64,000 bases of DNA from an uncultured Ectothiorhodospiraceae bacterium (GCA_945787125.1 CALZHW010000001.1:8323-72322), one strand, 5' to 3'. Shown: positions 22,667-61,625, counted from the stretch's first letter. The notes: generated by a model not told the origin, from the sequence alone. Numbers and translations are program-made.

Positions 22667-22669
22667 TTA

Positions 22670-34514: not shown

Positions 34515-34576
34515 TATTGGTGTTCAACGACTGTTCAACTAGCATTCAAGGACTCCGAAGGTGGCACCTTCCATCG

Positions 34577-35444: not shown

Positions 35445-35451
35445 AGCGCGG

Positions 35452-40254: not shown

Positions 40255-42025
40255 ATTTGAGATTTGTTTGCAGCCAATACTCTAATAATGTTAAGTGCCA
40301 CAATTTACTGCCATTAAGCCGTGTCAACTGTGACTCAGGATTTGCGAGTAATTGATCAACGTATGATCGTTGATATAAACCGCGCTCAATGCATGCTTGG
40401 GAGTTTAGAATATCAGCCATGAAATCGAGGAATTCACCACGCACATATTTTAACGCGGGCATGGGAAAATAACCTTTTGGACGATCGATCACTTTGTCTG
40501 GCAGCAAGCCACGGCTAATTATTTTAAGCGGATGCTTACCGTCAGATTTCAATTTTAATTCCGGCGGCATTTGCGCTGCCAATTCTACCAGGTGCTGATC
40601 CAGAAAAGGAACTCGTGCTTCTAAGCCCCAAGCCATCGTCATATTATCCACCCGCTTTACCGGGTCATCCACAACCAGGGTGGTAACATCCGCGCGTAAT
40701 ACCGCATCCATAAACGTTTCAGCTTGGGGTGAATGTAATAACTCATCCATCAGCATCGAACTGTAATCCTCAGTGAGGTAGTTCGGTGTCAGCATTTGCG
40801 CAAACTCTGCGTGATCTCGATCAAAATAATGTTGGCGAAAACGTTCAATCGGTGTGCCTGATGCGTCAGCCATGCGTGGATACCAGAAATAACCCGCGAA
40901 GACTTCATCCGCGCCTTGACCACTTTGTACCACTTTGACGTGTTGAGAAACTTGTTCAGATAACAAATAAAAAGCCACTGCATCCTGACCGAACATCGGC
41001 TCCGCCATATTGGCTACTGCTTCCGGCAAACGTTTCAATACTTCATCATTAGAGACATGCATTTTATGATGTTTCGTCTGAAATTTTTCAACCACCGCAT
41101 CAGAAAACTCAAACTCACTGCCTTTTTCATCGGCGATATCTTCAAAGCCAATCGAAAAAGTTAGAATATCTTTCACCTCCGCTTCCGCCAGCAATGCCAC
41201 TAGCAAACTGGAATCCAGACCACCCGATAACAAAACACCCACCGGCACATCAGCGACTTCTTTTCGTATTTTAACGGCTTTACGTAAGGCTGCATGAATT
41301 GCGTCAATCCACTCGGGTTCAGACAGGATTTTATCAGGTCGTTTAGCCCTTAAATCCCAATATTGCCACTCATCAACCTGACCATTTGCATCAATTAACA
41401 AGGCATGCGCTGGCTTCATTTTTTTAATGCCTTTGAACAGCGTGCGAGGTGCCGGCACAACGGCATGCAAAGAAAATAAATTATGTAACGCTAGGGCATC
41501 AAGGTTAGTATCAACGTCACCCACATTCAACAATGACTGCATATTGGAAGCGAAACGAAATTTCTTATTATCGTGCTGGAAATACAAGGGTTTTATACCC
41601 ATACGATCACGTGCAGCAAACAGTTGTTGTTTCTGCAAATCCCAAATGGCAAAGGCAAACATGCCGTAAAAATGCTGCAAACACTCTTTGCCCCAATGAT
41701 GATATGCTTTAATAATAACTTCGCTATCACCCTCGGTAAAAAAAGTATAACCTTTCTGCGCCAACTCTTTACGCAACGCTTTGTAATTATAGATTGTGCC
41801 GTTGAAAACCAAAACCATCTGCAACGCTGCATCATGCAGCGGTTGATTAGACTTTTCTGACAAATCAATAATTGATAATCGACGATGTCCAAAGCCTAAT
41901 GAGCCATCAAAGAATTGACCAGCATTATCCGGACCGCGACGCTCAATTGCCTGCATCATCGCATCTATCGTGCGACTCTCTACTGCCGCCCCATCAAACC
42001 GTAATTCGCCACATATGCCACACAT
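40250..42025 (-). CDS. asnB: asparagine synthase (glutamine-hydrolysing), AsnB family; could be a sugar/EPS amidotransferase of this family
   Basis: 591 aa. N-terminal MCGI Ntn glutaminase nucleophile and SGGLDSS PP-loop ATP pyrophosphatase motif. Confidence 0.75.
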   Translation of the reverse strand: MCGICGELRFDGAAVESRTIDAMMQAIERRGPDNAGQFFDGSLGFGHRRLSIIDLSEKSNQPLHDAALQMVLVFNGTIYNYKALRKELAQKGYTFFTEGDSEVIIKAYHHWGKECLQHFYGMFAFAIWDLQKQQLFAARDRMGIKPLYFQHDNKKFRFASNMQSLLNVGDVDTNLDALALHNLFSLHAVVPAPRTLFKGIKKMKPAHALLIDANGQVDEWQYWDLRAKRPDKILSEPEWIDAIHAALRKAVKIRKEVADVPVGVLLSGGLDSSLLVALLAEAEVKDILTFSIGFEDIADEKGSEFEFSDAVVEKFQTKHHKMHVSNDEVLKRLPEAVANMAEPMFGQDAVAFYLLSEQVSQHVKVVQSGQGADEVFAGYFWYPRMADASGTPIERFRQHYFDRDHAEFAQMLTPNYLTEDYSSMLMDELLHSPQAETFMDAVLRADVTTLVVDDPVKRVDNMTMAWGLEARVPFLDQHLVELAAQMPPELKLKSDGKHPLKIISRGLLPDKVIDRPKGYFPMPALKYVRGEFLDFMADILNSQACIERGLYQRSYVDQLLANPESQLTRLNGSKLWHLTLLEYWLQTNLKS

Positions 42026-42027
42026 AA

Positions 42028-43560
42028 TTAGTTCTGATAACCTCCACCACCGGGTGTTTTAATCGTTAAAATATCACCTTTGTTAACGCTAAAATTTGTT
42101 TTTGCAGGTAAACGTTTGCCGTGACACCAATTCTCACCGGCTGCAGCTGCGCCGCCATTTAACATGCCCCAGGGCAAACGATTACGTCGCTCTGTCAAGA
42201 CTGTGACTTCAGCGCTATCGAGAAATTCATATTCACGAATAATACCTTCACCGCCCACAAACATTCCTTTACCGCCTGAATTTTCTCTCACAGCATAACG
42301 CGTGATGCGTAACGGGAAATGGGTTTCCAAAGATTCAATTGGAGTGTTTAAAGTGTTTGTCATGTGTGTTTGCACCGCGGACAAACCGTTACCGTTTGCA
42401 CTGGCTCCCATACCACCACCGATAGTCTCGTAATAATCCCAACTATTATTACCTCGCCCGCCCATGGCAATATTGTTCATACTGCCGTGACTCGCTGCGG
42501 CCATTTTTTCAGGAATCGCCAGCAACAAAGCGCCCATTAACACATCAACCACTCGTGTGCTGGTTTCAACATTGCCTGCTGCCACTGCCGCAGGCCTTTC
42601 AGCATTGAGCAAACAACCCAACGGTGCGCTAATTTTTATTCGTCGAAAGCTTCCGGCACAAGCCGGTGTAGTCGCTGGCATTAAGCAACGAAACACATAG
42701 AATACCGATGCTGCGGCAACGGACAACGGGCAATTAATATTGCCTTTGACCTGCTGCGCAGTGCCAGCAAAATCCACCACTATTTCATCAGGCATGACCT
42801 TAATGCTAACGACAATTGGGATATTTTCATTGCCCATACCATCATCATCCATATAATCGGTGAAACGATACTCACCCACTGGTATTTGTTTCAAGGTACT
42901 ATCTGACAGACGCTGGGCATAGGCATTTAATGCATCCAGTGCATTCGTATAATTCTGCTGGCCGGTGCTTTCAATCAACCGAGTTAGGCGCTGTGCGCCC
43001 AACTGATTAGCGCTAATTTGCGCGGAAATATCACCGTTTGACTGCACGGGATTTGCAACGTTACTCAACAGTTTTTGCATAAAAACATCATCAATGCTAC
43101 CCGCATGAATCAACTTATAAGGAGAGATCACCATGCCTTCTTCATCGAGTGATTGAGAAATCGGCATCGAGCCAGGAGAACAGGCACCAATATCTGCATG
43201 ATGCGCACGATTCGCAATAAAACCCGTGAGTATTTCGGTGACAAAGACAGGCGCAATCAATGTCACATCGGGCAAATGAGTGCCGCCGAGATAAGGATCA
43301 TTAAGAATCAACATGTCACCCGGCAACCATTCCACCTGACTCACAATGTCGCGCATCGCGTAAGCCATACTACCCAGATGAACCGGGATGTGAGCGGCTT
43401 GCGCGCAAAGCTCACCCTGCAGGTCAAAAACCGCACAAGAAAAGTCCAATCTGTCTTTGATATTCGGAGAAAATGCAGAACGTTGCAACACCGCCCCCAT
43501 TTCGTCGCAAATAGCTGATATTCGGCTAGAAAACAAACTTAGTTCGATCGCATTCATCAT
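42028..43560 (-). CDS. hydantoinase B / oxoprolinase family protein (HyuB-like)
   Basis: 510 aa with Hydantoinase_B signature (LNDPYLGGTHLPDVTL). Ends 2 bp before asnB start. No HyuA partner in the window. Confidence 0.7.
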   Translation of the reverse strand: MMNAIELSLFSSRISAICDEMGAVLQRSAFSPNIKDRLDFSCAVFDLQGELCAQAAHIPVHLGSMAYAMRDIVSQVEWLPGDMLILNDPYLGGTHLPDVTLIAPVFVTEILTGFIANRAHHADIGACSPGSMPISQSLDEEGMVISPYKLIHAGSIDDVFMQKLLSNVANPVQSNGDISAQISANQLGAQRLTRLIESTGQQNYTNALDALNAYAQRLSDSTLKQIPVGEYRFTDYMDDDGMGNENIPIVVSIKVMPDEIVVDFAGTAQQVKGNINCPLSVAAASVFYVFRCLMPATTPACAGSFRRIKISAPLGCLLNAERPAAVAAGNVETSTRVVDVLMGALLLAIPEKMAAASHGSMNNIAMGGRGNNSWDYYETIGGGMGASANGNGLSAVQTHMTNTLNTPIESLETHFPLRITRYAVRENSGGKGMFVGGEGIIREYEFLDSAEVTVLTERRNRLPWGMLNGGAAAAGENWCHGKRLPAKTNFSVNKGDILTIKTPGGGGYQN

Positions 43561-47980: not shown

Positions 47981-48142
47981 CCTAGAATAATCAGTTGGCG
48001 CGAATTTTTAGTGCAAGATATTGAAGTGCATAGTGAATTCAAGAATTGCGTGGTCACCTAATTGGTGATCAGCATATTTTTAAATTTGCTAGGTGCATCA
48101 AGAGCTTGTGCTAAAAATCGTGGTTCAACTGATTAATCTAGG
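47981..48142. repeat. Family-B MITE-like element
   Basis: Near-identical to 36534-36695. Begins 1 nt after the ABC gene stop codon. Confidence 0.75.
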
Positions 48143-49160: not shown

Positions 49161-50279
49161 TTATTTCCCGACATCAGCCGCTTGCTGAATTTCATTGACT
49201 GATTGGCGCTTACACGCTTTACGGACTAAATGCGGGATTAGTAAATAAAACGGCATGCGCAAATAATGCGAACGAATATAAAGCAGCCAACGCGCGGCAG
49301 ACGTGAATGAGTCGTTACAACTGGCATGATCAGGCATTAAAGCACGGGAAAATAACAGATCCATCAGCATTGGAAAGCGCGGTTTATAGCGCGCTATTTC
49401 GCGGTATTCTTTGTTCGGGATCGGAACATTCAACAGCACTTTTAAATAATGCAGTGCATAATACGTCGGTAACATCAGGTTCAACTGTTTCGCGCGCACG
49501 ATTAACTCCTCCCAAAAAGTCGGTTCTTGCCCGGCTGCGTCTGATATCAATGCATCGAGATCGACCAAATCACGCAATCCATGCTCCAATTCCCCCTCAT
49601 AGAACAAATGGGTGGCACTGTGCAGAATCCTGTCAACCACTGAGAGTGTGTAAATATTTTTTTCAGAAGGAATTTTTCTTATCGCCTGCAATAACAGCGA
49701 TGCATCAGGGGCACAACTGACGGTATCCGGGAGTATATTATGATGCACATCAATAGTGGTGCCACGCTTGTTATGCACCATGGGCGGTAATTCATGCATC
49801 CACTTGCGATAGTATTGTTGATCATAGGCGTCCAGCTTTTCTGACTCCCAACCAGCAAGTGACAACGCCTCTTCAACGACCGCAAGGTCAGCTTTCGCAA
49901 CAATGATATCAACATCTGAAAAAAGCCGCCCTTTGCTGGCGTTAAGCTTGCCTAACGCATACGCCGCACCTTTCAATAAGACCAAAGGCTGATTAATTCC
50001 CCTCAATACCTCATTAATACAGGAAACTTCCCACTGTATGGACTCTATATGCCGTGTGGCAACTTTTGCATTGATTAACAAATGCGACAATGGGCGCGCG
50101 GGCACAAAGGACAGTAAATCTGCATCATTCAATCGATGATAAACCGTGGCTAAGGTTTTTGAGCGGCGAGCCTGCCGAATGAGAAGATCCCATTGCACTA
50201 AACTCATATTGCGAGCCATCGCTGGGTCACGCAAAAATAGCATGAGTTCGCACGGGTTTTTGATAAGATTAAAAGGCAT
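49161..50279 (-). CDS. nucleotidyltransferase-fold protein (uncharacterised NTP_transf_5-like family)
   Basis: 372 aa. Polymerase-beta-like motif GKLNASKGRLFSDVDIIV (G-S...D-x-D). Last gene of the PqqD/HprK-related cluster. Confidence 0.55.
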   Translation of the reverse strand: MPFNLIKNPCELMLFLRDPAMARNMSLVQWDLLIRQARRSKTLATVYHRLNDADLLSFVPARPLSHLLINAKVATRHIESIQWEVSCINEVLRGINQPLVLLKGAAYALGKLNASKGRLFSDVDIIVAKADLAVVEEALSLAGWESEKLDAYDQQYYRKWMHELPPMVHNKRGTTIDVHHNILPDTVSCAPDASLLLQAIRKIPSEKNIYTLSVVDRILHSATHLFYEGELEHGLRDLVDLDALISDAAGQEPTFWEELIVRAKQLNLMLPTYYALHYLKVLLNVPIPNKEYREIARYKPRFPMLMDLLFSRALMPDHASCNDSFTSAARWLLYIRSHYLRMPFYLLIPHLVRKACKRQSVNEIQQAADVGK

Positions 50280-50290
50280 CTGTTGCGAGG

Positions 50291-51193
50291 TTAGACCAAA
50301 GAATCAAACAGTTCAATAGCTTCAGGCAAAGCGCTGTAATTGAATCGATAACAATCGCATTGTTGGATCAAATCGCTTAATACTTCAAACCCGGTTGCAC
50401 CCAAAATATGATAATTAAATGTTTGCTGTGCGACCTCCATAAATGTGTGACCTTTTGAAAATTCTGTAAGTTTTGTCTTACTTGATGCTTGATACTGGGG
50501 CAAGATGACCCATTGAGCTGGCGCGATCTCATTGGCTCTTTGCACGCTCTCTAGTGGTGCTTTTAAATGCGATACCGTGCCTTTGTGCGTATCGTACGCA
50601 ACCTTGCCAAAAATTGGCTTTGCAACAAAATTCTTGATGATATCAATGGATTCGTTTTTTAAACTGATGGGCCTTGGTACCGGCGTAACAGACAGATCTT
50701 CCAGTGATATCAGCGCCAATTCATCAGAAAACAAACGCCAACCATTATTGACCAATGCAGAACACAAGGTGCTTTTTCCGGCACCGGGAGCACCCGGCAT
50801 AATAACCACCTTGCCATTTTTTTCTATCACCGCGGAATGAATCATTAAATATTGATGCGACTGATTGGCAATAGCCCAATTCAAACCCCACTCAAATTGC
50901 GCATAAGCCTGATCAATCGGCAAGGGAGTGAAGGGCTGGGTGCCGTCGTTATTAAAGATGGCCTGCCGCTTGAAAAATCGACGAAAGCCTGAGCCTTGCT
51001 CAATTTGAATGTAAATGTCCGCAAAATCGGCATGTATTTCGGCCTCATAAACGTCATACAGCCGGTAAATATCTTGCGCAACATTATGGATGGTACTGCA
51101 AATATTGACCTTATAAGGCCCAATATTTATGGTCACACCGTTATGAGAAATTTCAGTGTGAAAGAGTTTCGGGCAAATCTGGGAAAGTATCAC
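50291..51193 (-). CDS. HPr kinase-related protein (HprK-related kinase A-type), P-loop kinase
   Basis: 300 aa. C-terminal-domain-like P-loop VIMPGAPGAGKSTLCSAL as in HPr kinase/phosphorylase. No N-terminal HprK domain. Confidence 0.6.
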   Translation of the reverse strand: MILSQICPKLFHTEISHNGVTINIGPYKVNICSTIHNVAQDIYRLYDVYEAEIHADFADIYIQIEQGSGFRRFFKRQAIFNNDGTQPFTPLPIDQAYAQFEWGLNWAIANQSHQYLMIHSAVIEKNGKVVIMPGAPGAGKSTLCSALVNNGWRLFSDELALISLEDLSVTPVPRPISLKNESIDIIKNFVAKPIFGKVAYDTHKGTVSHLKAPLESVQRANEIAPAQWVILPQYQASSKTKLTEFSKGHTFMEVAQQTFNYHILGATGFEVLSDLIQQCDCYRFNYSALPEAIELFDSLV

Positions 51194-51464
51194 TTGGGTA
51201 GTTTACGATGAATCCTTGAGAACTAAGACTAAGCAAATGCTGTTCCAGTGAGAAATTTAATACTTTATCACTGGGAAATTCAAACTTTACCTTTAAGTTT
51301 TGAGCGAGATCACCCAGCCCGTGAGGCTGAGATTGCAGTAAGGTCAATATTTCTGAAGAAAGCGTATCGAGCAAGTGCGTTGAGCCAGAATACCGGTCGA
51401 AGATTATGGCTTCATCCGCCAGCTTTTTTATGATAAAACGGTTTTGTTTGTCAATTTGCCACAT
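51153..51464 (-). CDS. PqqD-family protein (RiPP recognition element-like peptide chaperone)
   Basis: 103 aa, RFIIKKLADEAIIFDRYSGSTHLLDTLSSEILTLLQ is a pattern typical of PqqD/RRE winged-helix proteins. Overlaps the kinase gene by 41 nt. Confidence 0.5.
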   Translation of the reverse strand: MWQIDKQNRFIIKKLADEAIIFDRYSGSTHLLDTLSSEILTLLQSQPHGLGDLAQNLKVKFEFPSDKVLNFSLEQHLLSLSSQGFIVNYPSDTFPDLPETLSH

Positions 51465-51489
51465 TGGCTAGGTTTAGCAGAATTAAGAT

Positions 51490-52245
51490 TTAGGTAAAGC
51501 TACTCACGAACAGGTCAACGATATCCTGGGTGGTCAAATTTATTGTTCTTCCCGCGATAATATATTCACCGCCGCCCATTGCCCCCAATAAATACAAATC
51601 CACCACCTGGTATGGCTGAAAGAAATAACCTGCAGGAATATCCGAAGACAAACCAGAGTTCACTGCGTTAAGGTAACAGGCGGTAGCAAACCGTGCCAGC
51701 TCAAAATCAGTTTGGTTTAATGCGAGAGATTCAAGGTGCGGATTCAGTGTACCCACAGCATATTCGCAAAAATTTGCCCGGTATTTGTCAAGATTGGCGA
51801 ATTTAGGATTACCTTTATATCCTTTGACAGCTTTACAGTCGTCCACCGAGTCCACGTTCTTCAAACTTTCAGATAACGCAAAAATCTCGAATAAATTCAA
51901 ATCAAGATAATTTGTAAAAAGAGGATCCTCAAATGGGTGAAATATACTCGCAAAAGTTGTCGCTTTTCTATCTAAAACCGAAAACTTTCTCGTCTGCTTC
52001 CAGTATCCCGGGCTCCTGCCAAAAGCGTAGGCACCAACGTTACAAGGAGCAGCACCACCACCTACCGACATATTACCGGAGACCATTCCAGAAAAATTGC
52101 AGGTGTTGGATAATACCGGACGACTATGCATGGTCATTAAGACAGGAGCACTAATCAGACCCAGCTTCATTATCTTACGTCGCGACAGATTCTGATCAGT
52201 CAATTTTTGTTGATTGTTTTCGGTATTTTCTGGTTTATTACTCAT
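51490..52245 (-). CDS. hypothetical exported protein with twin-arginine-like signal peptide; first gene of the PqqD/HprK-related cluster
   Basis: 251 aa, SRRKIMKLGLISAPVLMTMHS (Tat-like RRxxxK motif plus hydrophobic core), then Gly/Cys-rich segment CNFSGMVSGNMSVGGGAAPCNVGAYAFG. No recognisable family. Confidence 0.4.
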   Translation of the reverse strand: MSNKPENTENNQQKLTDQNLSRRKIMKLGLISAPVLMTMHSRPVLSNTCNFSGMVSGNMSVGGGAAPCNVGAYAFGRSPGYWKQTRKFSVLDRKATTFASIFHPFEDPLFTNYLDLNLFEIFALSESLKNVDSVDDCKAVKGYKGNPKFANLDKYRANFCEYAVGTLNPHLESLALNQTDFELARFATACYLNAVNSGLSSDIPAGYFFQPYQVVDLYLLGAMGGGEYIIAGRTINLTTQDIVDLFVSSFT

Positions 52246-52738
52246 AATGTTTTATTTGCCAATCATTTTATGATTAATTAGGTATTGGTCTGGAATTACT
52301 TTAAAATATATTTATTTCAATATCTGTAATGCATAAATCATTCCACATCTCATGATTTGCTTTTAATTCAACAATTTACAGAGATTATCCAGCGGTTTTA
52401 GAATTATCCGAGAGAACCTGCTGTTGATTTCCCATCATCCTGTAAGAAATAGCGACAATTAGATGATGAGCTGACTAATATGCTGCCAATTATAATTGTT
52501 TTTGTCGGCCAATTACAGGAAATGTAAAATTAAACGGGCACTATTAGCTAAATTTTCAATAATTTTACAATTGCAAGCAGTGAAAGCCCCGATTTCAGAC
52601 TTCAGCGCCTGCCAACCAAGAAAAATGTGTTAAGATTTTCGACACTAAATTAAAGACTAAACCATTGTGATCAGAATAACTATGATTTATTTCACAACTT
52701 ATTCCCCATCTCTCCCATCGAGCTAAATCACGATACCC

Positions 52739-53971
52739 ATGGCATTAATTCGGCAAAAGCACCGCATAATTCCCACTGTTTTAACATTTTATCTGCTACT
52801 GCTTCTATTTGGCAGCCTGCATCCCATCAGCACCTGGCAAACACCACCCTACCAGGATTTGATCGGCTCATTTGAAAGCGATACAAAATATACGCCCAAA
52901 AGCGATTTAATCATTAATTTATTGATTTACATACCGTTTGGATTACTTCTCGTACTTCTATTAAATCGTTTCGGTCAATACAAAACGACTTATTTACAAG
53001 CCATTATCATCGCGGCGTTAGTGAGCCTTAGCATTGAATGCCTACAACTTTTCATCCCCTCAAGAGCCCAGTCATTTGTCGATTTTGGTATGAATTCAGT
53101 GGGCGCTGGCCTTGGATGTTTACTACACGCTGCATTCACCAAAAAAGGGCTATTGGGTGGCACATTTAATCACTGGCGCTACAATTTATTCTATCGTGGA
53201 CGCTACGTCGATCTTGGCATACTGGTAATTGCTGGCTGGGCTCTTTCCGAACTCAGCCCATTCCTGCCATCCCTAAACTCTCAGCATGTGACTGACGAAA
53301 TACTGGCTTTGCGCAGCCAGCTGGAAATTCGCGACATCCTGTTTCTCGATATTATCAATACCTGCCTGCAAACATATACTTTGCTTATTATTTTCAAGCT
53401 TTGCTTGAGATATCAGTTAAATACCTTGTTATTAGCACTGGCGTTTTGTTTTATGGTGATTTTATATAAAATCCCGGTGGATGGCCTAAGCATACGAATT
53501 GAAAGCATTCTTGGCATCATCGCAGCCACTATCATTTACTTTGTTAGTCCAGGATTATCCAGCCGCAGCAAAACCGGCATTGCCATCTACGCAATAAGTA
53601 TAAGCTACATAATCAGCCAGTTAAATCACCTTCAAATTACACAGATTGACGACATATCTACTTTTAACTGGATACCCTTTGCATTTCCTTCAAACAGAAT
53701 GCAATACATTAATGACATTTTATTGACAAGTTGGGTTTTTGGTGCCATCAGTTTCCTGGTGATTAGCCTTAAATTAAGGCATCACCGTGAAGTTTGGCTA
53801 ATTGGTGTCGTGGCCACGGGCATAGCATGCTCAAGTGTAGAGTGGCAACAGCAATATCTACAACATGTCTCTGCTGATTTAACAATCGTGCTTATTGCCA
53901 TGCTGATTTGGACACTGCCATTTCTTCATCCGGAAGTCAGACGAGCGATCAAATCAAAACCTCTGCCATAA
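52739..53971 (+). CDS. polytopic membrane protein with N-terminal VanZ-like domain
   Basis: 410 aa, many predicted TM helices. The segment RAQSFVDFGMNSVGAGLGCLL resembles the conserved VanZ-family motif. Confidence 0.4.
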   Translation: MALIRQKHRIIPTVLTFYLLLLLFGSLHPISTWQTPPYQDLIGSFESDTKYTPKSDLIINLLIYIPFGLLLVLLLNRFGQYKTTYLQAIIIAALVSLSIECLQLFIPSRAQSFVDFGMNSVGAGLGCLLHAAFTKKGLLGGTFNHWRYNLFYRGRYVDLGILVIAGWALSELSPFLPSLNSQHVTDEILALRSQLEIRDILFLDIINTCLQTYTLLIIFKLCLRYQLNTLLLALAFCFMVILYKIPVDGLSIRIESILGIIAATIIYFVSPGLSSRSKTGIAIYAISISYIISQLNHLQITQIDDISTFNWIPFAFPSNRMQYINDILLTSWVFGAISFLVISLKLRHHREVWLIGVVATGIACSSVEWQQQYLQHVSADLTIVLIAMLIWTLPFLHPEVRRAIKSKPLP

Positions 53972-53998: not shown

Positions 53999-55027
53999 TT
54001 AAATAACTCTTAAATAATTCTGATTCGCCAGATACCAATCCACGGTTTTCTCTATGCCTTGTTCAAACTGCAAGGAAGGCGACCAGGTTAATTCGTTTTT
54101 CAATTTTTCGCCATTAATCGCATAACGCCAATCATGCCCCGGCCGATCGGTGACAAAGGTAATCAAGGACTCATAGGGTTTATCCCAGGGGCTTTTTGCA
54201 TCTAACAACGTACAAATAATTTTTGCAATATCATTATTTGCCCACTCATTATTACCACCGACATTATAGGTTTCGCCAATTTTTCCTTGTCGCACCACCT
54301 TATCAATTGCCGTACAGTGATCATCCACATAAAGCCAATCGCGAATATTGGTGCCATCACCGTAAACCGGAATCGAATCATGATTCAAACACGCACGAAT
54401 CACCGTAGGAATGAATTTTTCACCGTGCTGATAAGCACCATAATTGTTTGAGCAGTTACTGGTGGTCACCGGCAAACCATAGGTATGCAAATAGGAGCGA
54501 ACCAGATGATCAGACCCCGCTTTAGATGCGGAGTACGGTGAATTCGGTGCATAAGGCGTTGTTTCAGTAAAAGCCGGCTCATCTGCTGACAAGGTTCCAT
54601 AGACCTCATCGGTTGAAATGTGGTGAAAGCGGCATTGTGTTTCGCCCCAACCTTTTTCATTCAACCAAACCTGACGCGCGGCCTCAAGTACCGTAAATGT
54701 TCCGATCAGGTTGGATTGTATAAATGCCGCAGGCCCGGTGATTGATCGATCCACATGACTTTCTGCTGCAAAATGCACAATGTTGTTGATATCATGTTCT
54801 TTTAACAAGCTTAACATCAATGCTGAATCACAAATATCGCCTTCAACAAATCGATGCCGCTCAGGCGCTGGTAAATTTTCAAGGTTTTTAAGACTACCGG
54901 CAAAACTTAAATTATCAACATTGACGATGTTTACCGTCTCATCGCTGGTCAGCAAATATCTAATATAGTTACTACCAATAAAGCCTGCACCACCGGTGAC
55001 CAATACATTTTTAGGGCTAAAACTCAT
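53999..55027 (-). CDS. rmlB: dTDP-glucose 4,6-dehydratase
   Basis: 342 aa, NVLVTGGAGFIGSNYIRYLL Rossmann motif, YSASKAGSD catalytic YxxxK. Confidence 0.9.
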   Translation of the reverse strand: MSFSPKNVLVTGGAGFIGSNYIRYLLTSDETVNIVNVDNLSFAGSLKNLENLPAPERHRFVEGDICDSALMLSLLKEHDINNIVHFAAESHVDRSITGPAAFIQSNLIGTFTVLEAARQVWLNEKGWGETQCRFHHISTDEVYGTLSADEPAFTETTPYAPNSPYSASKAGSDHLVRSYLHTYGLPVTTSNCSNNYGAYQHGEKFIPTVIRACLNHDSIPVYGDGTNIRDWLYVDDHCTAIDKVVRQGKIGETYNVGGNNEWANNDIAKIICTLLDAKSPWDKPYESLITFVTDRPGHDWRYAINGEKLKNELTWSPSLQFEQGIEKTVDWYLANQNYLRVI

Positions 55028-55914
55028 TATTTAACGAGCTCCTTAATCATAATTTTTAGTTCGTCTTGCCAGGAATACTGATCGATATCAAATACCGCTT
55101 TAAGCTTAGAACAATCCAGCCGACTATTTTGCGGACGCTTGGCAGGCAACGGGAATTCGTTAGTGGCTATGGGTAAAACGCGCTTGACCATTAAGGTTTC
55201 GTGTTGGCGGGTATTTTCAATAATGGCGTTGGCAAACTCATACCAGGTGCTTTGCGGAAGATCGCAATAATGATATGTACCAAATGCCGTAAAATCTTTA
55301 TTCTGCTCTTTACTCTGCATGGCATGACAAATTCGCAACAGAACTTTCGAAACATTCACCGTGGACGTAGGACAACCGTGTTGATCACTGACGATCTTAA
55401 GCTCTTCTCTCTCACGTGCCAGGCGTTGAATGGTTTTTACAAAGTTATGCCCATATAAACCAAATGCCCAGCTAATTCTTAATATAATGTGTTGCGGCAA
55501 AATGGCGCGGACGGCTTCTTCTCCTGCATTTTTACTTTGGCCGTAAACCCCCATAGGGTTAACCGGGTCTGTTTCTGTATAAGCCGTTTTTTTATCGCCA
55601 TCAAAGACATAATCGGTTGAAATATGAATGAGCGGAACATCGAGCGCAAGACAAGCCTTGGCGATATTTTCCGGCCCGTTCTGGTTCACCTTGAACGCAA
55701 GATCAGGCTCGGACTCTGCTTTATCGACGGCAGTGTAAGCCGCAGCATTAATCACCAAATCCGGGGTGATCTCACGCATTTTTTCGAGCACTGCCTGAGC
55801 ATTAGTGATATCCAGACCATTGCGATCAAGTGCCACCACATCAAACGTCGTCGCCGCAAGATGACACAAGTTTTGCCCTAACTGCCCACCAGCACCTAAT
55901 ACTAAGAGCTTCAT
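55027..55914 (-). CDS. rmlD: dTDP-4-dehydrorhamnose reductase
   Basis: 295 aa, MKLLVLGAGGQLGQNL... RmlD-type short-chain reductase. Sits between rmlC and rmlB. Confidence 0.85.
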   Translation of the reverse strand: MKLLVLGAGGQLGQNLCHLAATTFDVVALDRNGLDITNAQAVLEKMREITPDLVINAAAYTAVDKAESEPDLAFKVNQNGPENIAKACLALDVPLIHISTDYVFDGDKKTAYTETDPVNPMGVYGQSKNAGEEAVRAILPQHIILRISWAFGLYGHNFVKTIQRLAREREELKIVSDQHGCPTSTVNVSKVLLRICHAMQSKEQNKDFTAFGTYHYCDLPQSTWYEFANAIIENTRQHETLMVKRVLPIATNEFPLPAKRPQNSRLDCSKLKAVFDIDQYSWQDELKIMIKELVK

Positions 55915-56468
55915 AATGTGGGTAAATCCTCGGGAGTCATAGCAGATAATAGCGATGCATTTTTGTCCTTTTCTGACAACTCCACTTCATCCAATGCAAT
56001 CGGCCAATCGATAGCGATTGCAGGGTCATCAAAGCGAATACTTTTTTCAGATTCTGGATGATAATAGTCGGTGCATTTATAAATAAAATCAACCGTCTCT
56101 GAAAGCACACAAAACCCATGCGCAAAACCCGGTGGCACATACATTTGACGATGATTTTCATCACTTAGAATCACCCCGACCCATTGACCAAACGTCGCTG
56201 AACCCTGGCGGACATCGACTGCCACATCATATACGTCGCCGCGCGAAACACTCACCAGCTTGCCTTGCGGTTGTATCAACTGATAGTGCAAACCCCGCAG
56301 TACGCCACGAAAAGAGCGTGAATGATTATCCTGCACAAACTGCTCATTTATTCCCGCATCCGCATAACGCACCTGATTATAGGTTTCTTGAAAAAAACCT
56401 CGCTGATCACCGAAAACTTTCGGCTCCAGGATAAGCACACCTGGTAACTTTGTCTCAATAATGTTCAA
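55911..56468 (-). CDS. rmlC: dTDP-4-dehydrorhamnose 3,5-epimerase
   Basis: 185 aa cupin, FGDQRGFFQETYN...RGLHYQ motifs. Confidence 0.85.
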   Translation of the reverse strand: MNIIETKLPGVLILEPKVFGDQRGFFQETYNQVRYADAGINEQFVQDNHSRSFRGVLRGLHYQLIQPQGKLVSVSRGDVYDVAVDVRQGSATFGQWVGVILSDENHRQMYVPPGFAHGFCVLSETVDFIYKCTDYYHPESEKSIRFDDPAIAIDWPIALDEVELSEKDKNASLLSAMTPEDLPTL

Positions 56469-56483
56469 TATCGCCTCCGCTGT

Positions 56484-57362
56484 TTATAATTTTCGATGGA
56501 GAATATTTTTTAAATATTCCCCGTAGCCGTTTTTCATTAAAGGCGCTGCAAGCTTCTCCAGCTGCTCGGCATCGATGTAACCCTGGCGAAAGGCGATTTC
56601 TTCCGGACAACAAATTTTCAGCCCTTGGCGCTCTTCCACCACTTGAATAAAATTTGCCGCAGCGAGCAGCGAATCATGCGTTCCCGTATCCAACCATGCC
56701 GAACCACGACCCAGCTTTTCTACATGGAGCTCTTCTTGCTGTAGATATACATTATTAACATCCGTTATCTCAAGCTCACCACGGGCTGAAGGTTTGATCT
56801 CTTTGGCAATCTCGACAACCTGGTTATCGTAGAAATACAGCCCGGTCACCGCATAATTGGATTTCGCAATTTTGGGTTTTTCTTCAATGCTGATGGCATT
56901 ACCCGACCCGTCGAATTCCACTACGCCATAACGCTCAGGATCTTTCACGTAGTAACCAAATACCGTTGCACCTTTATCCCTTTTGGTCGAATTCGCCAGC
57001 GTGGATTCCAAGCCATGTCCATAGAAGATGTTATCTCCCAGTACGAGACTCACTGGACTATTATCGATGAATTCTTCACCAATCGTAAACGCCTGCGCCA
57101 AACCTTTGGGCTCTTCCTGCACAGCGTATTGAATACTTATTCCCCATTTTTGACCATCGCCCAATAAACGCTGAAATAATATGGCATCCTGAGGTGTAGT
57201 AATGATCAAAATATCGCGTATGCCAGCCAGCATTAACAGCGAAACCGGATAATAAATCATCGGCTTATCATAAATCGGCATGAGTTGTTTGCTGACTGAC
57301 ATTGTCAATGGGTGAAGGCGAGTACCGGAGCCACCGGCTAGTACGATTCCTTTGTAGTTCAA
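56484..57362 (-). CDS. rmlA: glucose-1-phosphate thymidylyltransferase
   Basis: 292 aa, [16 protein letters not shown] nucleotidyltransferase motif. Confidence 0.9.
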
Positions 57363-57436
57363 TTTTATCCCTTTAAGGTAGTGCTATCTTATGTGTTACA
57401 AATAATAACCAGTAAGGCTCTCAATACAAACTTAAA

Positions 57437-57787
57437 ACTCAAGTTACGGAGTTCAAAGTTGTAAAAGTGCCACCTTCCTGCACCCGTAGCGGCAAAACCT
57501 TAGCGAGAGACGCCGTGAATACGTCCATGTAGGATACTCTACGGTATGGGCGACGAGGGCGGGAGGCCTATCTACAAAGACAAGCTCATGGCTTAAGGCT
57601 TGAGCGGCCTTCCCGGATACTTCTTCATCGTACTTTAAATGACCGGATTAGTCCTGTCGCATAACCTTTTGGTTACTGAATTTGATCATACAAGGCTTGA
57701 CGACAGCATCCGTGCTGTCAACACTCTCGATAAGGCCTTGCCACTACGAGTGCTGATCACGGGAAATAGCTTGAACTCCGATACTTG
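57437..57787. repeat. Family-A element split by a nested ~170-bp insertion (left half 57437-57528, insert 57529-57698, right half 57699-57787)
   Basis: The left half actcaagttacggagttcaaagttgtaaaagtgccaccttcctgcacccgtagcggcaaaaccttagcgagagacgccgtgaatacgtccatgtagg and the right half cttgacgacagcatccgtgctgtcaacactctcgataaggccttgccactacgagtgctg...ttgaactccgatacttg together reconstruct one element. Confidence 0.65.
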
Positions 57788-57947
57788 CGTTAAAACATGC
57801 ACTGCAAACAAATATCAATGAATAATTAGAAAGATTCGGCCATACAAAAATTAGAACCAAAAATATTAAATATTCCGCCTTATGGTAATCTGCATTTTAT
57901 AGTTACTCAGTGCTGCATCACGGAAAAACTTATTATTTTTACAAAAA

Positions 57948-58378: not shown

Positions 58379-59956
58379 GTGCTGTTCAACTCCTATATAT
58401 TCATTTTTGCTTTTCTTCCTGCAACTTTTCTCGTCTATTTTTTATTGGCTCGATACAGAGGAGGTGAAGCCGCTATCGGCTTCCTTGTCATTGCATCGTT
58501 GTTCTTTTATGGGTGGTGGAACCCCATCTATCTCGTATTAATACTGTGCTCCATTGGCGTCAACTATTTTGTTGGTGAAACCATCTCGAAAATTTGTAAA
58601 CAAAAAAACATCCTGCGAGCAAAAGTGCTACTTATTGTTGGAATTGTTTTCAATCTCGGGCTGCTCGCCTATTTCAAGTACGCAAATTTTTTCGTAGAAA
58701 ACGCTAATGCCGTACTGGAAACCAACATTCATCTCAATCAAATTATCTTGCCATTAGCCATTTCATTTTTTACTTTTCAGCAGATTGCCTACTTAGTAGA
58801 CGCCTACAAAGGAATAACTGAAGAGTTTAGGTTCATTCACTATGCTCTATTTGTCACCTTTTTCCCCCAGCTTATTGCGGGGCCTATAGTGCATCACAAA
58901 GAAATGTTGCCGCAATTTATGCGATTGGAAAACATGAAGCCGCAACTGGAAAATATTGTGATTGGCATAAGCATATTTTCTCTCGGCCTGTTCAAAAAGG
59001 TCGTGCTTGCTGATGGAATTGCGCAATACTCTACTCCGATATTTGATGCCGCAGCGTCTGGCGAAACTCTGACTTTTTTTGCTGCGTGGGGAGGCGCACT
59101 GGCTTATACCTTTCAATTATATTTTGATTTTTCCGGTTATTCTGATATGGCAATCGGGATAGCAAGAGTATTCGGTATTCGCTTACCACTAAATTTTGCG
59201 TCGCCCTACAAATCATTAAGCATTGTTGAGTTCTGGCGTCGTTGGCACATCACCTTATCGCGCTTTCTACGCGACTATGTTTACATTGCACTAGGCGGAA
59301 ACCGCAAAGGTAATGTACGTCGTTATACAAACCTGCTGACGACCATGTTGCTGGGCGGCTTATGGCACGGAGCAGGTTGGACCTTCGTATTATGGGGCGG
59401 ACTGCACGGCCTGTATCTGGTGATTAATCATATTTGGAGTCACATAAAAATACGCTTAAATCTGCAATGGCTTGATGGCTTTCGGGGTTGGCACTTTTTC
59501 AGCTGGCTGTTAACTTTCGTATCCGTCGTCAATGCTTGGGTCTTCTTTCGCGCCGAGAGCCTGAGCGCCGCACTTGAGATTATAAAAGGAATGTACGGTT
59601 TCAATGGCATTGCTATCCCGAATGCGATTTACACGCGACTCGGCAGCATGCAAGGCATACTCAATGAAGTCGGTATTAACAGTTATATAGGTGGTGGCGC
59701 TCAGTTTGTATTCACCTACTTGTGGATAGCGGTACTATTGCTCGTGGTAGTGATAATGCCAAATACACAGCAGATCATGAAAGGTTATTTACAAATTAAC
59801 GCCAAACAAGGTAATGCTCTGTTCGATGAAGGCATCGCTTCGCGCTTGATGACATTCAGGTTTAATGTCGCTTGGGCATTATTGATGGCAGGAGTGATGG
59901 TGATAGCGCTGTTTGGACTCTCCCGCGTTTCTGAATTTTTATATTTCCAATTTTAA
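58379..59956 (+). CDS. MBOAT-family membrane-bound O-acyltransferase (AlgI/DltB-like)
   Basis: 525 aa polytopic. Conserved MBOAT histidine region (WRRWHITLSRFLRDYVYIALGGNRKG) and LWHGAGW motif. Confidence 0.8.
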   Translation: MLFNSYIFIFAFLPATFLVYFLLARYRGGEAAIGFLVIASLFFYGWWNPIYLVLILCSIGVNYFVGETISKICKQKNILRAKVLLIVGIVFNLGLLAYFKYANFFVENANAVLETNIHLNQIILPLAISFFTFQQIAYLVDAYKGITEEFRFIHYALFVTFFPQLIAGPIVHHKEMLPQFMRLENMKPQLENIVIGISIFSLGLFKKVVLADGIAQYSTPIFDAAASGETLTFFAAWGGALAYTFQLYFDFSGYSDMAIGIARVFGIRLPLNFASPYKSLSIVEFWRRWHITLSRFLRDYVYIALGGNRKGNVRRYTNLLTTMLLGGLWHGAGWTFVLWGGLHGLYLVINHIWSHIKIRLNLQWLDGFRGWHFFSWLLTFVSVVNAWVFFRAESLSAALEIIKGMYGFNGIAIPNAIYTRLGSMQGILNEVGINSYIGGGAQFVFTYLWIAVLLLVVVIMPNTQQIMKGYLQINAKQGNALFDEGIASRLMTFRFNVAWALLMAGVMVIALFGLSRVSEFLYFQF

Positions 59957-59960
59957 TCAA

Positions 59961-61181
59961 ATGCCGATAAAAAAATATCTCTATCTTTATATTGCGCTAC
60001 TGTTAACAGTAGCATCATTGTTGGCGGCATTTAATGCGATTGTTGACCCGTATATGCTATTCCACACAGAGCGCATATCAAACTTTAACGATAAAAAACC
60101 TGCATTAATCAATCGAGCCCAGCTATATAAACCCTACAGCGTCGTAAAGGTTGCTCCACAGACAATTATAGTCGGCAATTCACGCCCCGAAATGGGGCTT
60201 GATCCCCGCTCAACATGCTGGTTACCCGAACATGGCACGGTCTACAGCCTAACATTTCCCGGCTTAAGTGCTTATGGGCAGACGCGCGCATTGTTTCATG
60301 GCATGGCAAGTGGCAACGTTAAACACGCATTATTAGGATTGGACTTCGCCGATGCACTCTATCGTAGGGGGCAATTCGTTAAGGAGGTAACATGGCCAGC
60401 CAAGAGCACAGAATTTTTCGATCGACTACTCGTAGATGAACAGGACAAAGAAAATCCACGTCAATGGCTAGCCAAGGTAAAAGATACATTTATGGCTCTA
60501 TTCTCGTTGGATACACTCTTTGATAGCCTATATACCGTCGCCTTCCAATCACCAAACAGCCCTGACCGAACACCACTGGGTTTTAATCCTGCCATGGATT
60601 ACGTTGATATAGTTCGTCATGAGGGTGAATGGGTTTTATTTAGTCAAAAACTCGATGAACTGGAATCGCGCTTTTCAAAAGTCGGACTAAGTATTTTCGA
60701 TACAGTAGGGCATTGGTCGATTGAGCTGGAAGGACTAAGACGAGCAATAGAGTTAGCCGTACAACGCGACATTCATTTAACGCTATTTATCAACCCCTAT
60801 CACTACACCTACTTGGAAAGCATTCGTGATGCAGGGTATTGGGATGAGTTCGAGCAATTCAAACGCAGCCTGAAAGACTTGGTTGATGACTATGCCGGTG
60901 GTAAAGTCGAACTTTGGGATTTTTCCCTCTATTCATCGTACACAGTATCACCAGTACCACTAAAAGGTAGTGCAAACGTATTTAACTGGTTTTGGGAACC
61001 TGCCCATTATAAGGCGGCGCTTGGAGATATTATGTTAGCTGAATTATTTGGAAAGCAATGTGTTCCCGAAAAAAATGAAACTCCTCTGGGAGTCCGCCTG
61101 AATGAAGTGGATATTGGAATTCATCTCCGCAATCAAAATGAGAAACGTGTGGCGTTGTTAAAAGATGTTGTAAATCAATAA
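59961..61181 (+). CDS. hypothetical membrane-anchored protein, possible MBOAT partner (AlgJ/DltD-like role)
   Basis: Start moved to ATG at 59961 (MPIKKYLYLYIALLLTVASLLAAF signal-anchor) so it follows the MBOAT stop. The call rests on position directly after an MBOAT gene. No firm motif. Confidence 0.35.
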   Translation: MPIKKYLYLYIALLLTVASLLAAFNAIVDPYMLFHTERISNFNDKKPALINRAQLYKPYSVVKVAPQTIIVGNSRPEMGLDPRSTCWLPEHGTVYSLTFPGLSAYGQTRALFHGMASGNVKHALLGLDFADALYRRGQFVKEVTWPAKSTEFFDRLLVDEQDKENPRQWLAKVKDTFMALFSLDTLFDSLYTVAFQSPNSPDRTPLGFNPAMDYVDIVRHEGEWVLFSQKLDELESRFSKVGLSIFDTVGHWSIELEGLRRAIELAVQRDIHLTLFINPYHYTYLESIRDAGYWDEFEQFKRSLKDLVDDYAGGKVELWDFSLYSSYTVSPVPLKGSANVFNWFWEPAHYKAALGDIMLAELFGKQCVPEKNETPLGVRLNEVDIGIHLRNQNEKRVALLKDVVNQ

Positions 61182-61218
61182 TGAATTCTTCTTTTAATGT
61201 TTTATTACTCATATTTAG

Positions 61219-61405
61219 CTCACAATCGGAGTTTAAATATTTTTCTCATAATCAACGCGCGTAGCGGCAAAACCTTATCGAGAGTGTTCGGCATGGATGC
61301 CACCCCAAGCCTACAGGGATGTATTCACGGCGTCTCTCGGTAAGGTTTTGCCGCTACGGGTGCTGGAAGGTGGTACTTTTGTAACTTTGAACTCCGAAAC
61401 TTGAG
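61219..61405. repeat. Family-A MITE-like element
   Basis: ctcacaatcggagtttaaatatttttctcataatcaacgcgcgtagcggcaaaaccttatcgagagtgttcggcatggatgcc...ggtggtacttttgtaactttgaactccgaaacttgag. Confidence 0.8.
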
Positions 61406-61625
61406 ATTTAACTAACTGCAATGCGCATTTTTCGATCGACAGAAGCGAATCGCCGCAGCTACTCGCTGAAAAATGTCGAAAATGTGCGCAAAATAGATCT
61501 TACATACTCGAACAGGCTCACAGGAGCCTCACTCTCAATCGTGCTCTCCAGACCTAATAGACTCCTAGCATAAAAAACCAGGATCTGATATTTTTAACTG
61601 CTCACTGAATGAAGAAGCAAAAACA

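Follow-up and report, generated by a model that had tools for sequence, protein, structure and literature searches.

A complete HPr-rel-A cassette in an uncultured Ectothiorhodospiraceae bacterium, with a twin-arginine-signal protein as its proposed substrate

PqqD-type proteins are peptide-presenting partners of modifying enzymes, and in RiPP clusters the precursor gene often lies immediately upstream of the recognition-protein gene. True HprK/P is a bifunctional regulatory kinase/phosphorylase, and TorD, DmsD and NapD are proofreading chaperones that bind Tat signals. In lasso-peptide biosynthesis, PsmK phosphorylates a Ser of the peptide, and PsmN, published as part of a 'family of uncharacterized nucleotidyltransferases', is required for the attachment of one or two hexoses to the phosphate. 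Lasso kinases carry a His-Lys-Asp-Asp catalytic motif (PMC9266682). NCBIfam already names an 'HPr-rel-A system', and RefSeq annotates copies likewise; a literature search found neither a paper on this system nor a published function for it. The first-pass annotation of the locus described here had spoken of an uncharacterised modification system, a description that agrees with the literature search but passes over the existing name.

ORF calling in the window, a 64-kb stretch of DNA from this bacterium (CALZHW010000001.1:8323-72322), reproduced the four co-oriented, tightly packed or overlapping genes of that annotation, at the same coordinates and all on the minus strand. Gene 1 (51490..52245) encodes a 251-aa twin-arginine-signal protein, hereafter X; gene 2 (51153..51464) encodes a 103-aa PqqD-family, RRE-type peptide chaperone; gene 3 (50291..51193) encodes a 300-aa HprK-related kinase A with a GTG start; and gene 4 (49161..50279) encodes a 372-aa PF14907 nucleotidyltransferase (NTase) with a polymerase-beta fold. 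Genes 1 and 2 are 25 nt apart, genes 2 and 3 overlap by 41 nt, the gene 2 stop lying over the kinase start, and genes 3 and 4 are 11 nt apart. The cassette represents the HPr-rel-A system in full. This system is a self-contained module of four genes with a probable role in protein modification, and a PF14907 gene in the same operon is an empirical feature outside the library definition. What is new here is the large gene 1 family, which is unnamed and matches neither Pfam nor NCBIfam.

The gene 2 product scored 43.9 bits against TIGR04353, 'HPr-rel-A system PqqD family peptide chaperone' (cut-off 35), and a profile built from 23 gene 2 orthologues matched TfuB1 (6jx3, E 3.5e-5) and TbiB1 (5v1u, E 0.007) over the full length, which upholds its earlier assignment to the PqqD family. 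TfuB1 and TbiB1 are leader-binding proteins (RREs) of lasso peptides and the closest solved relatives of the gene 2 product. With this relative of PqqD and lasso B1, the cassette has the kind of RRE protein by which an RRE-dependent RiPP pathway is recognised, and both the family profiles and the co-occurrence described below support the earlier view of a RiPP-like modification cassette in which a PqqD-type protein presents the substrate.

The kinase scored 373.6 bits against TIGR04352, 'HprK-related kinase A' (cut-off 200), over profile positions 2-280 of 280. HPr kinase/phosphorylase proper was rejected: the score against TIGR00679, the model for true HprK, was just 20.9 (cut-off 240), and that against PF07475 was 18.5 (cut-off 33.3) with the P-loop region alone aligning. 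The protein is therefore a relative of HprK and not HprK itself, and the low TIGR00679 score agrees with the earlier description of an HprK P-loop without the HprK N-domain. Among the residues with at least 95% conservation are H119, G137, G139, K140, S141, T142, S156, D157, E158, R174, P175 and K179. A weak pairwise alignment with Lactobacillus casei HprK (2qmh; query 114-171, E 0.23) paired H119 with the HprK His, the P-loop with GDSGVGKS and D157-E158 with ADD, and the His-Lys-Asp-Asp motif of lasso kinases has its counterpart in H119, K140, D157 and E158. The predicted catalytic residues are intact and conserved. The P-loop codons G137-A-G-K-S-T142 occupy 50768..50785 (minus strand); a 'terminator-like' match at the same positions was rejected as a terminator, being this coding sequence. 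The kinase belongs to an equivalog family of its own.

The NTase matched PF14907 with an E value of 1.5e-51, in line with the polymerase-beta-fold enzyme named earlier. A confident structure model was nearest to MenT, ANT(2'') and LnuA-type nucleotidyltransferases, and its structural neighbours include the toxin-type NTases MenT and TglT. The predicted catalytic motif D122-V-D124 is encoded at 49908..49916 (minus strand), with D177 as the third carboxylate. K103, G104, G117, R118, D122, D124, D177, H179 and H180 showed at least 95% conservation in 22 orthologues and were invariant in 53 homologues, and the putative catalytic residues D122, D124 and D177 are intact and conserved. From its published description and the structural neighbours that it shares with this enzyme, PsmN probably also belongs to PF14907.

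Profile searches of X against Pfam and NCBIfam gave no match, whereas its family comprises 4343 representatives at E<=1e-3 (clusters at 50% identity), every one of the homologues named 'hypothetical protein'. Residues 1-46 (52108..52245, minus strand) form a Tat-type leader, with an n-region, the motif S21-R22-R23-K-I-M-K, an h-region within 18 uncharged residues, and a conserved c-region, H-S41-R42-P43-V44-L45. The elements that characterise Tat signals are all present, namely an S/T-R-R-x-F-L-K-like motif, 13 or more uncharged residues in the h-region and a basic residue in the c-region, and RR followed by at least 13 uncharged residues was found in 22/22 upstream proteins (window plus related loci). 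One orthologue of X has KR instead of RR. R22, R23, S41, R42, P43, V44 and L45 were invariant in an alignment of 16 sequences; across 147 representatives, R22 was conserved at 97%, R23 at 99%, T38 at 90%, S41 at 91% and P43 at 78%, and the leader was the most conserved block of X (mean 0.63). X thus carries a canonical Tat leader and is a putative Tat export substrate, and the leader is the proposed binding site for the PqqD-like protein.

Behind the leader lies a Ser-rich loop between conserved Cys residues, C49...S52..S56.N58.S60...C68 (52039..52107, minus strand). The twin-arginine signal noted earlier holds, but the segment after it, described then as Gly/Cys-rich, is Ser/Gly-rich with two conserved Cys. 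In the 147 representatives, S52 and S56 (99% each) were conserved as strongly as the twin arginines, followed by S60 (90%), C49 (89%) and C68 (86%), with a Cys-to-Cys spacing of 19-22 residues in the family. The Cys/Ser-rich loop/Cys arrangement follows the signal in most members and was unrecognisable in a few divergent proteins (L010, L014 and L020). On this conservation pattern, the loop is the best candidate modification site. The mature helical domain begins with the motif G76-R-S-P-G-Y-W82 (52000..52020, minus strand). X proteins range from 75 to 285 aa, about 190-270 aa being typical.

The module occurs in Gamma-, Beta- and Alphaproteobacteria, Vicinamibacteria and Rokubacteria, and is carried by RefSeq plasmids of Sphingomonas and Vibrio as well as by Methylotuvimicrobium. 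Among the kinase-anchored genome loci with upstream sequence (18 of 20), an RR-leader ORF and an NTase were present in 18/18, and a PqqD-like ORF was detected or visible in each. When contexts were anchored on X instead, PqqD-like, kinase and NTase genes were present in 9/9 sampled, and the NTase adjoined the kinase in 24/24 loci analysed and in the RefSeq copies. Gene order differs in three loci (L007, L010 and L012), with the gene set unchanged. The co-occurrence of kinase and NTase with PqqD-like genes, for which a check had been proposed, was thus seen in every related locus; the gene set recurs in all related loci with enough sequence, and the grouping of the four genes is far beyond chance.

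The most frequent setting of the cassette is inside XrtA/PEP-CTERM exopolysaccharide loci, where PrsT adjoins it in 7 loci, PrsK in at least 4 and PrsR in 4, and where TIGR03098, TIGR03099, TIGR03100, TIGR03108 and TIGR03088 also occur. In the 64-kb window no XrtA-system family scored above cut-off and no PEP-CTERM C-terminus was found, and the exopolysaccharide link is therefore indirect for this genome. Here the cassette faces a divergently transcribed gene for a 410-aa VanZ-like membrane protein (52739..53971, plus strand; PF04892, E 3.2e-14), with an orthologue in the same position in the closest relative, L001 (E 1.6e-80). The cassettes of L003/L004, L020 and L022 likewise have a VanZ-like gene nearby, whose product in L003/L004 additionally carries a Wzy_C domain; the VanZ-like gene is a recurrent but not universal neighbour. 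By sequence, rmlBDCA occupies 53999-57362, and an MBOAT acyltransferase gene is also present in the window.

We propose, with about an even chance of being right, that the chaperone, kinase and NTase modify X before Tat export and that X works in the envelope with surface machinery. In the cytoplasm, the PqqD-like protein would bind the leader of newly made X, the likely recognition strand being the unusually conserved S-R-P-x-L c-region, and would keep X from the Tat translocase, in the manner of RREs with RiPP leaders and of TorD-type chaperones with Tat signals. The bound chaperone would recruit the HprK-related kinase for ATP-dependent phosphorylation of a hydroxyl residue on X, most likely at the near-invariant S52, S56 or S60 right after the leader or, alternatively, at a conserved Ser/Thr three residues from the C-terminus. 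The PF14907 NTase would then act on the phosphoserine, either nucleotidylating the phosphate or ultimately leaving a sugar there, an outcome for which PsmK/PsmN on a lasso peptide would be the precedent. Modified and folded X would be exported by Tat and lose its leader, and in the envelope it may work with exopolysaccharide and cell-surface machinery: presumably the XrtA/PEP-CTERM locus in most genomes, and the VanZ-like protein, rmlBDCA and the MBOAT acyltransferase in the window.

It is possible, though unlikely, that the three enzymes modify another substrate, whether PEP-CTERM proteins, a small peptide that has escaped recognition or some other secreted protein, and that X is a co-regulated exported accessory, such as a protein that partners the product in the periplasm or serves as its receptor. 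PEP-CTERM proteins do adjoin the cassette in several loci, and the helical domain of X also exists by itself, in six tandem copies in an 808-aa protein (P0017) whose visible sequence has no Tat leader. However, the cassettes of Sphingomonas, Vibrio and the window have no PEP-CTERM neighbours, conservation in X is highest in the leader and Ser loop and not in the mature domain, and short forms of 75 aa (L023) and 81 aa (L022) consist of the leader and a short Ser-rich core alone. In most loci the X gene also directly precedes the PqqD-like gene, a frequent position for a precursor. As for a small peptide, the first-pass annotation had suggested a short precursor hidden in the 490-bp stretch that separates X from the divergently transcribed VanZ-like gene (52246..52738), presumably a promoter region. 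This suggestion was not supported: just two ORFs of at least 20 aa were present, both on the plus strand, comparison with the equivalent region of L001 gave no similarity above background, and this comparison and the ORF scan together revealed no conserved small ORF. Neither an Rfam family at gathering score nor a sigma-54 consensus was found in this region. The other option raised earlier, an exported protein as substrate, fared better, and the strongest candidate for the substrate is the conserved Tat-leader protein.

A regulatory or quality-control switch is quite unlikely. Here X or the chaperone would be reversibly phosphorylated as in HprK/P, and possibly nucleotidylylated, to gate Tat export or to signal to exopolysaccharide production. 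This would suit the regulatory, bifunctional nature of true HprK/P, the frequent position of the cassette beside the PrsK/PrsR two-component regulators of XrtA loci, and the structural neighbours MenT and TglT, which act on macromolecules. Against it stand the role of PqqD-type proteins as peptide presenters for modifying enzymes, with lasso RREs as the closest solved relatives of gene 2, and the stable tailoring modification that is the closest functional precedent for the enzyme pair; the module also has no phosphatase or obvious effector domain.

A non-protein substrate for the kinase and NTase is, in our judgement, very unlikely; it would be an intermediate of the surface pathways encoded nearby (rml, MBOAT or XrtA exopolysaccharide), be it a sugar, a lipid or a polysaccharide. 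Polysaccharide genes surround the cassette in the window (rmlBDCA, MBOAT) and in most loci, and ANT(2'') and LnuA-type relatives nucleotidylate small-molecule hydroxyls. However, this reading leaves both the obligatory PqqD-like peptide chaperone and the obligatory Tat-leader protein unexplained, and the characterised kinases of the HprK family, namely HprK and those of lasso clusters, all phosphorylate Ser residues of proteins or peptides.

In the window, the only asparagine-synthase homologue is the AsnB-like gene at 40250-42025, which encodes an N-acetylglutaminylglutamine (NAGGN) amidotransferase (TIGR03104, 940 bits) and scored 263.6 against the lasso cyclase model NF033535 (cut-off 525). 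The one such homologue found beside a cassette, in L032, matched the XrtA-system amidotransferase TIGR03108 with 1080 bits and scored 265.9 against the lasso cyclase model (cut-off 525). No lasso cyclase was found among these scanned homologues, nor any B2 leader peptidase domain in the cassette genes or their neighbours (window, with the 9.7-34 kb ORFs partly scanned), as had been noted at the outset for both. Lasso cluster membership, which calls for a cyclase, a B2 peptidase and a short precursor, was rejected for the window. A remnant or satellite of a lasso-peptide cluster, with cyclase and protease elsewhere, is hardly credible: although a B1-type RRE, an HprK-like kinase and an 'uncharacterised nucleotidyltransferase' make up the accessory set of paeninodin- and pseudomycoidin-type clusters, both cyclase scores fall well under the cut-off, X proteins with their length range and Tat leaders are unlike lasso precursors, and the kinase has an equivalog family to itself.

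The cassette nevertheless has three protein types in common with the lasso tailoring set of PadeK/ThcoK/PsmK, PsmN and B1. The His, Lys and first Asp of the lasso-kinase motif are kept in the cassette kinase, whereas the second Asp is replaced by Glu (D157-E158); ANT(2'') is a structural neighbour of PsmN as it is of the cassette NTase, which has a DxD motif; and the lasso B1 proteins TfuB1 and TbiB1 are matched by the cassette PqqD profile. In contrast, the cassette lacks the cyclase, B2 protease and ABC exporter of lasso clusters. Lasso precursors are short leader-core peptides ending in Ser, and lasso kinases act on this C-terminal Ser, whereas the candidate here is a Tat-signal protein of about 190-270 aa. 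The lasso sets characterised so far are mostly from Firmicutes, at least one being from a Sphingobium, whereas the HPr-rel-A module was found mainly in Proteobacteria, beside exopolysaccharide genes.

Like TorD, DmsD and NapD, the PqqD-like protein is a small dedicated cytoplasmic protein whose gene lies beside that of its putative Tat substrate, and it would likewise bind the signal and delay export until maturation; its predicted PqqD/RRE winged helix is an unrelated fold, and covalent modification would take the place of cofactor insertion. SynChlorMet ScmC (TIGR04249) and the GAK-system HprK-related kinase B (TIGR04355) have the P-loop kinase core and a putative peptide-modification cassette setting in common with the kinase, and Pfam groups HprK-like cassette kinases under PF27840 ScmC. 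However, the kinase scored 29.1 against TIGR04249 (cut-off 125) and 21.5 against TIGR04355 (cut-off 200), and the ScmC and GAK-system partner genes encode radical SAM and ATP-grasp enzymes, unlike those of the cassette.

Bufferins and MNIO-modified RiPPs are similar in that an export signal replaces the classical leader, the partner contains an RRE, and modification in the cytoplasm precedes arrival in the periplasm (PMC11626156, PMC12710340). They have Sec signals, MNIO oxidases, DUF2063 partners and modified Cys, whereas the cassette has a Tat-type signal, a kinase with an NTase, and conserved Ser. Compared with the HPr-rel-A system itself, the window copy is a member with nothing essential different: both markers scored above their curated cut-offs, and the kinase/chaperone adjacency with a neighbouring PF14907 gene matches the RefSeq-annotated copies. 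The NCBIfam library defines just two of the four genes (TIGR04352 and TIGR04353), with the NTase covered by the generic PF14907 alone and the Tat-leader protein having neither model nor name.

The four minus-strand ORFs described in the first-pass annotation were all present, encoding a 251-aa Tat-leader protein (X; 51490-52245), a 103-aa PqqD-like protein (51153-51464), a 300-aa kinase (50291-51193), and a 372-aa nucleotidyltransferase (NTase; 49161-50279). X and the PqqD-like gene are 25 nt apart, the PqqD-like and kinase genes overlap by 41 nt, and 11 nt separate the kinase gene from the NTase gene; the four look like one operon. HMM searches assigned the three proteins other than X to families. 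The kinase was a full-length match to TIGR04352 ("HprK-related kinase A", NCBIfam) with 373.6 bits against a cut-off of 200, and the true HPr kinase model scored 20.9 against a cut-off of 240; the 103-aa protein passed TIGR04353 ("HPr-rel-A system PqqD family peptide chaperone", NCBIfam; 43.9 vs 35), and the 372-aa protein belonged to PF14907 (E 1.5e-51). These family assignments therefore identify the cassette as a copy of a system already named in the NCBI library. X itself had no match in Pfam or NCBIfam. The cassette is a standard member of the catalogued, uncharacterised HPr-rel-A system and is not new as a gene family. This system exists in databases as two family names only, and no substrate assignment was found for it; RefSeq uses the HPr-rel-A wording for the Sphingomonas and Vibrio copies, where X is called "hypothetical protein". 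Full-text literature searches returned nothing on HPr-rel-A, TIGR04352, or TIGR04353, nothing combining exosortase, PqqD, and HPr, and a single mention of PF14907, in an unrelated phosphonate survey.

A VanZ-like gene (52739-53971) is divergent from the cassette. The 490-bp region upstream of X (52246-52738), which had been proposed to hide a short precursor peptide, aligned with the closest relative at background level, and no ORF on its minus strand reached 20 aa; a precursor there was rejected on both grounds, and the 17-aa ORF singled out earlier lies within the same unconserved region. The sigma-54 consensus TGGCAC-N5-TTGC had no match upstream of X, and its window-wide matches were at chance level. 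Sigma-70-like matches were not above those in shuffled sequences, and an Rfam search gave nothing near gathering scores and no regulatory RNA element upstream of X. A "terminator" at 50768-50785 inside the kinase gene was rejected, being P-loop coding sequence.

A kinase-anchored search recovered 20 genome loci with 33–49% identity, spread over Methylococcales, which include the closest relatives, other Gamma-, Alpha- and Betaproteobacteria, one Vicinamibacteria MAG, and one Rokubacteria MAG. The NTase gene adjoined the kinase gene in every locus of this set. Iterated searching found PqqD-like ORFs in 21 of 24 loci; loci L011, L018, and L019 carried small unscored ORFs in the expected position, and L007, L010, and L012 differed in gene order while keeping the gene set. 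X-anchored contexts contained X, a ~90-aa PqqD-like protein, a ScmC-type kinase, and NTP_transf_5 in 9/9 sampled. The gene set recurred in other genomes from both anchors, and the earlier interpretation as a RiPP-like modification cassette was supported. On Vibrio alfacsensis plasmid pVa1 (L031; NZ_CP032095.1), an 84-aa ORF at 6838-7092, between genes annotated as "hypothetical protein" and "HprK-related kinase A", occupies the place of the PqqD-like gene in other loci and is a position-based candidate. It is absent from the PLSDB gene table of that RefSeq record, which is incomplete, so annotation may have missed it.

X had few close relatives (16 matches), but when 1.84 billion cluster representatives were searched with a profile, the family grew to 4343 proteins at E≤1e-3 (1603 at E≤1e-10); all named homologues were "hypothetical protein" and lacked a Pfam domain. 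Residue conservation was calculated from the 147 best representatives and is given in the numbering of the window X. The Tat-type leader was evident from R22 and R23 (97% and 99%), followed by at least 12 uncharged residues in 95% of the representatives, and no other part of the protein was as conserved as the leader block (mean 0.63, against 0.14 for the middle). T38 (90%), S41 (91%), P43 (78%), and C49 (89%) precede three serines, S52 (99%), S56 (99%), and S60 (90%). Further conserved positions were C68 (86%), G76 (96%), P79 (90%), W82 (94%), N193 (98%), and, near the C-terminus, position 249, which is Thr in 84% and Ser in the window X. In three loci where the X profile failed (L010, L014, and L022), the ORF that precedes the PqqD-like gene nevertheless opened with RR, followed by a hydrophobic stretch and then a basic c-region. 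Two minimal forms, 81 aa long in L022 and 75 aa long in L023, had the leader and a short Ser-rich core only; the split kinase gene of L023 points to possible assembly errors in that locus. The X orthologue of Methylotuvimicrobium sp. KM1 (L032, 7540-8397; CP173170.1) has K-R at the twin-arginine position, with the Ser loop and the remainder of the leader retained. The mature domain was helical in a predicted structure of poor quality, and this model matched no known fold. In one 808-aa protein from the representative library (P0017), the mature domain (GC.P.FW ... AALLNA ...) is repeated in tandem six times, and the visible part of the N-terminus has no Tat leader; the mature X domain therefore exists outside the cassette architecture.

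The catalytic motifs of the kinase were intact: among 23 orthologues, H119, G137, G139, K140, S141, T142, S156, D157, E158, R174, P175, and K179 were at least 95% conserved. In a weak pairwise alignment to Lactobacillus casei HprK (E 0.23), H119, the P-loop Lys, and D157-E158 faced the HprK His, Lys, and Asp-Asp; on this alignment they correspond to the His-Lys-Asp-Asp set that is essential in lasso-peptide kinases (PMC9266682). Single-sequence PDB searches gave a marginal HprK P-loop match for the kinase and no match for the NTase or the PqqD-like protein. For the latter, the family profile alone succeeded: built from 23 orthologues, it matched TfuB1 (E 3.5e-5) and TbiB1 (E 0.007), both leader-binding proteins of lasso systems, over their full length.

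Among 22 loci scanned for cassette neighbours, the XrtA-locus proteins PrsT, PrsK, and PrsR were encoded beside the cassette in seven, at least four, and four loci, respectively, and exosortase-A-associated hydrolase 1 was also among the neighbours. In the closest relative (L001), whose X is 50–58% identical to the window X, a VanZ-like gene precedes the genes for an exosortase-A-associated acyl-CoA ligase (776 bits), decarboxylase (608), and hydrolase (358). In Methylotuvimicrobium sp. KM1, the cassette comes directly after the XrtA-system amidotransferase (1080 bits) and glycosyltransferase. In Sphingomonas and Vibrio, the cassette is surrounded by unrelated genes, so the module appears self-contained. 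Within the 64-kb window, no XrtA or PEP-CTERM genes were found. On one side, the gene order is shared with L001 (SOD, aminotransferase, OTCase, ABC ATPase, dihaem cytochrome c, cassette, VanZ-like gene), and the other carries rmlBDCA and an MBOAT gene. Downstream of rmlBDCA, at 58379-62831, this MBOAT (DltB-like) acyltransferase gene, an overlapping 422-aa ORF with no family match, and a Kelch/beta-propeller gene suggest an acylated surface polysaccharide locus.

The window also contains a sigma-54 activator and histidine kinase (463-3279), upstream of three successive large TPR-repeat proteins (648, 700, and 549 aa; 4011-9695), all sub-threshold against PrsT and PilW. A large flagellar/chemotaxis cluster (12093-32897) includes two flagellin genes, fliD, flgL, flgK, flgJ-like, flgI, flgE, flgD, cheR, cheW-receiver, and flgA; the tandem flagellin genes (14381-15823 and 16524-17969) have a 300-nt repeat in common (72% identity). 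An arsenosugar biosynthesis set at 33840-36414 combines radical SAM ArsS (TIGR04167, 469 bits) with glycosyltransferase-like TIGR04283 and TIGR04282. A 162-nt direct repeat, 97% identical, occurs at 36534-36695 and 47981-48142, 11.4 kb apart, the second copy lying between the ABC ATPase and dihaem cytochrome c genes, on the downstream side of the cassette at a distance of ~1 kb; several weak Rfam matches, all below threshold, cluster on and beside this repeat. Interspersed intergenic repeats of ~100–200 nt (at least 10 copies, both orientations, 60–96% identity; core ...TTTTGCCGCTACGGGTGCTGGAAGGTGGCAC...) were located at 3380-4000, 11000-11176, 16385-16480, 22496-22669, 26274-26518, 29909-30099, 34589-34762, 40064-40251, 57432-57793, and 61233-61411 and look like a REP- or MITE-like element. 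The AsnB-like gene recorded earlier, 9 kb from the cassette, is present and proved to encode an N-acetylglutaminylglutamine (NAGGN) amidotransferase (TIGR03104, 940 bits), adjoining a hydantoinase-B/caprolactamase-like gene (40250-43560).

The X family, which is large, unnamed, and found with the same module in every sampled context, is a substrate candidate for the HPr-rel-A system. Beyond the gene set, its conservation, the intact catalytic motifs, and the Tat-type leader, all of which the sequences show, we infer by analogy with lasso systems a model in which the PqqD-like protein would bind the X leader, with the conserved S-R-P-x-L c-region, unusual for a Tat signal, probably serving as the strand that is recognised. 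Phosphorylation by the kinase would fall on S52, S56, or S60 or else on the conserved C-terminal Ser/Thr; this phosphate would be elaborated by the NTase; and finished X would be exported via Tat, a route that fits proteins whose maturation takes place in the cytoplasm. We give this model as a whole an even chance of being correct.

The main rival, that the enzymes act on a different substrate and X is an accessory protein, seems unlikely to us. Of the lesser rivals, a regulatory switch is quite improbable, and action on a non-protein substrate very improbable. Descent from a lasso locus was rejected, since the AsnB-like gene of the window is the NAGGN amidotransferase and its L032 homologue is the XrtA-system enzyme.

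Extending the preferred substrate model, we tentatively propose, as a possibility with somewhat less than even prospects, a new kind of ribosomally made, modified exported protein: the Tat signal would also act as the RiPP-type leader that a PqqD-like RRE recognises, a Ser just behind the leader would receive a phosphodiester-linked group (phosphate elaborated by the NTase), and the XrtA/PEP-CTERM exopolysaccharide system would use the product, for instance as a phospho-linked anchor or as a glycan primer. To our knowledge, the biochemistry of that system remains poorly understood. Going by its citation in PMC2907700, this exopolysaccharide and floc-formation system was first described by Haft et al. 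in 2006, and the model, if true, would give a biochemical handle on it. It would also mean that a Tat signal can act as an RRE-recognised leader, for which we know of no earlier case. If the model fails, the cassette would be just one more representative of an uncharacterised gene family that is already catalogued.

Our analysis adds to the two family names an unnamed, universal family of Tat-leader partner proteins containing near-invariant serines, a link to XrtA loci, and a concrete, testable proposal for the mechanism. The nearest experimental precedent for the cassette kinase and NTase is the PsmK/PsmN pair of the lasso peptide pseudomycoidin. There, HprK-like PsmK phosphorylates a precursor Ser, and attachment of one or two hexoses to the PsmK-made phosphate then requires PsmN, an "uncharacterized nucleotidyltransferase"; PsmN loses its activity when the DxD motif is mutated, and it has ANT(2'') as structural neighbour (PMC6993621). 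S52, S56, and S60 of X are candidate modification sites, and substrate candidate, sites, and this chemical precedent together turn the HPr-rel-A annotation into a directly testable hypothesis.
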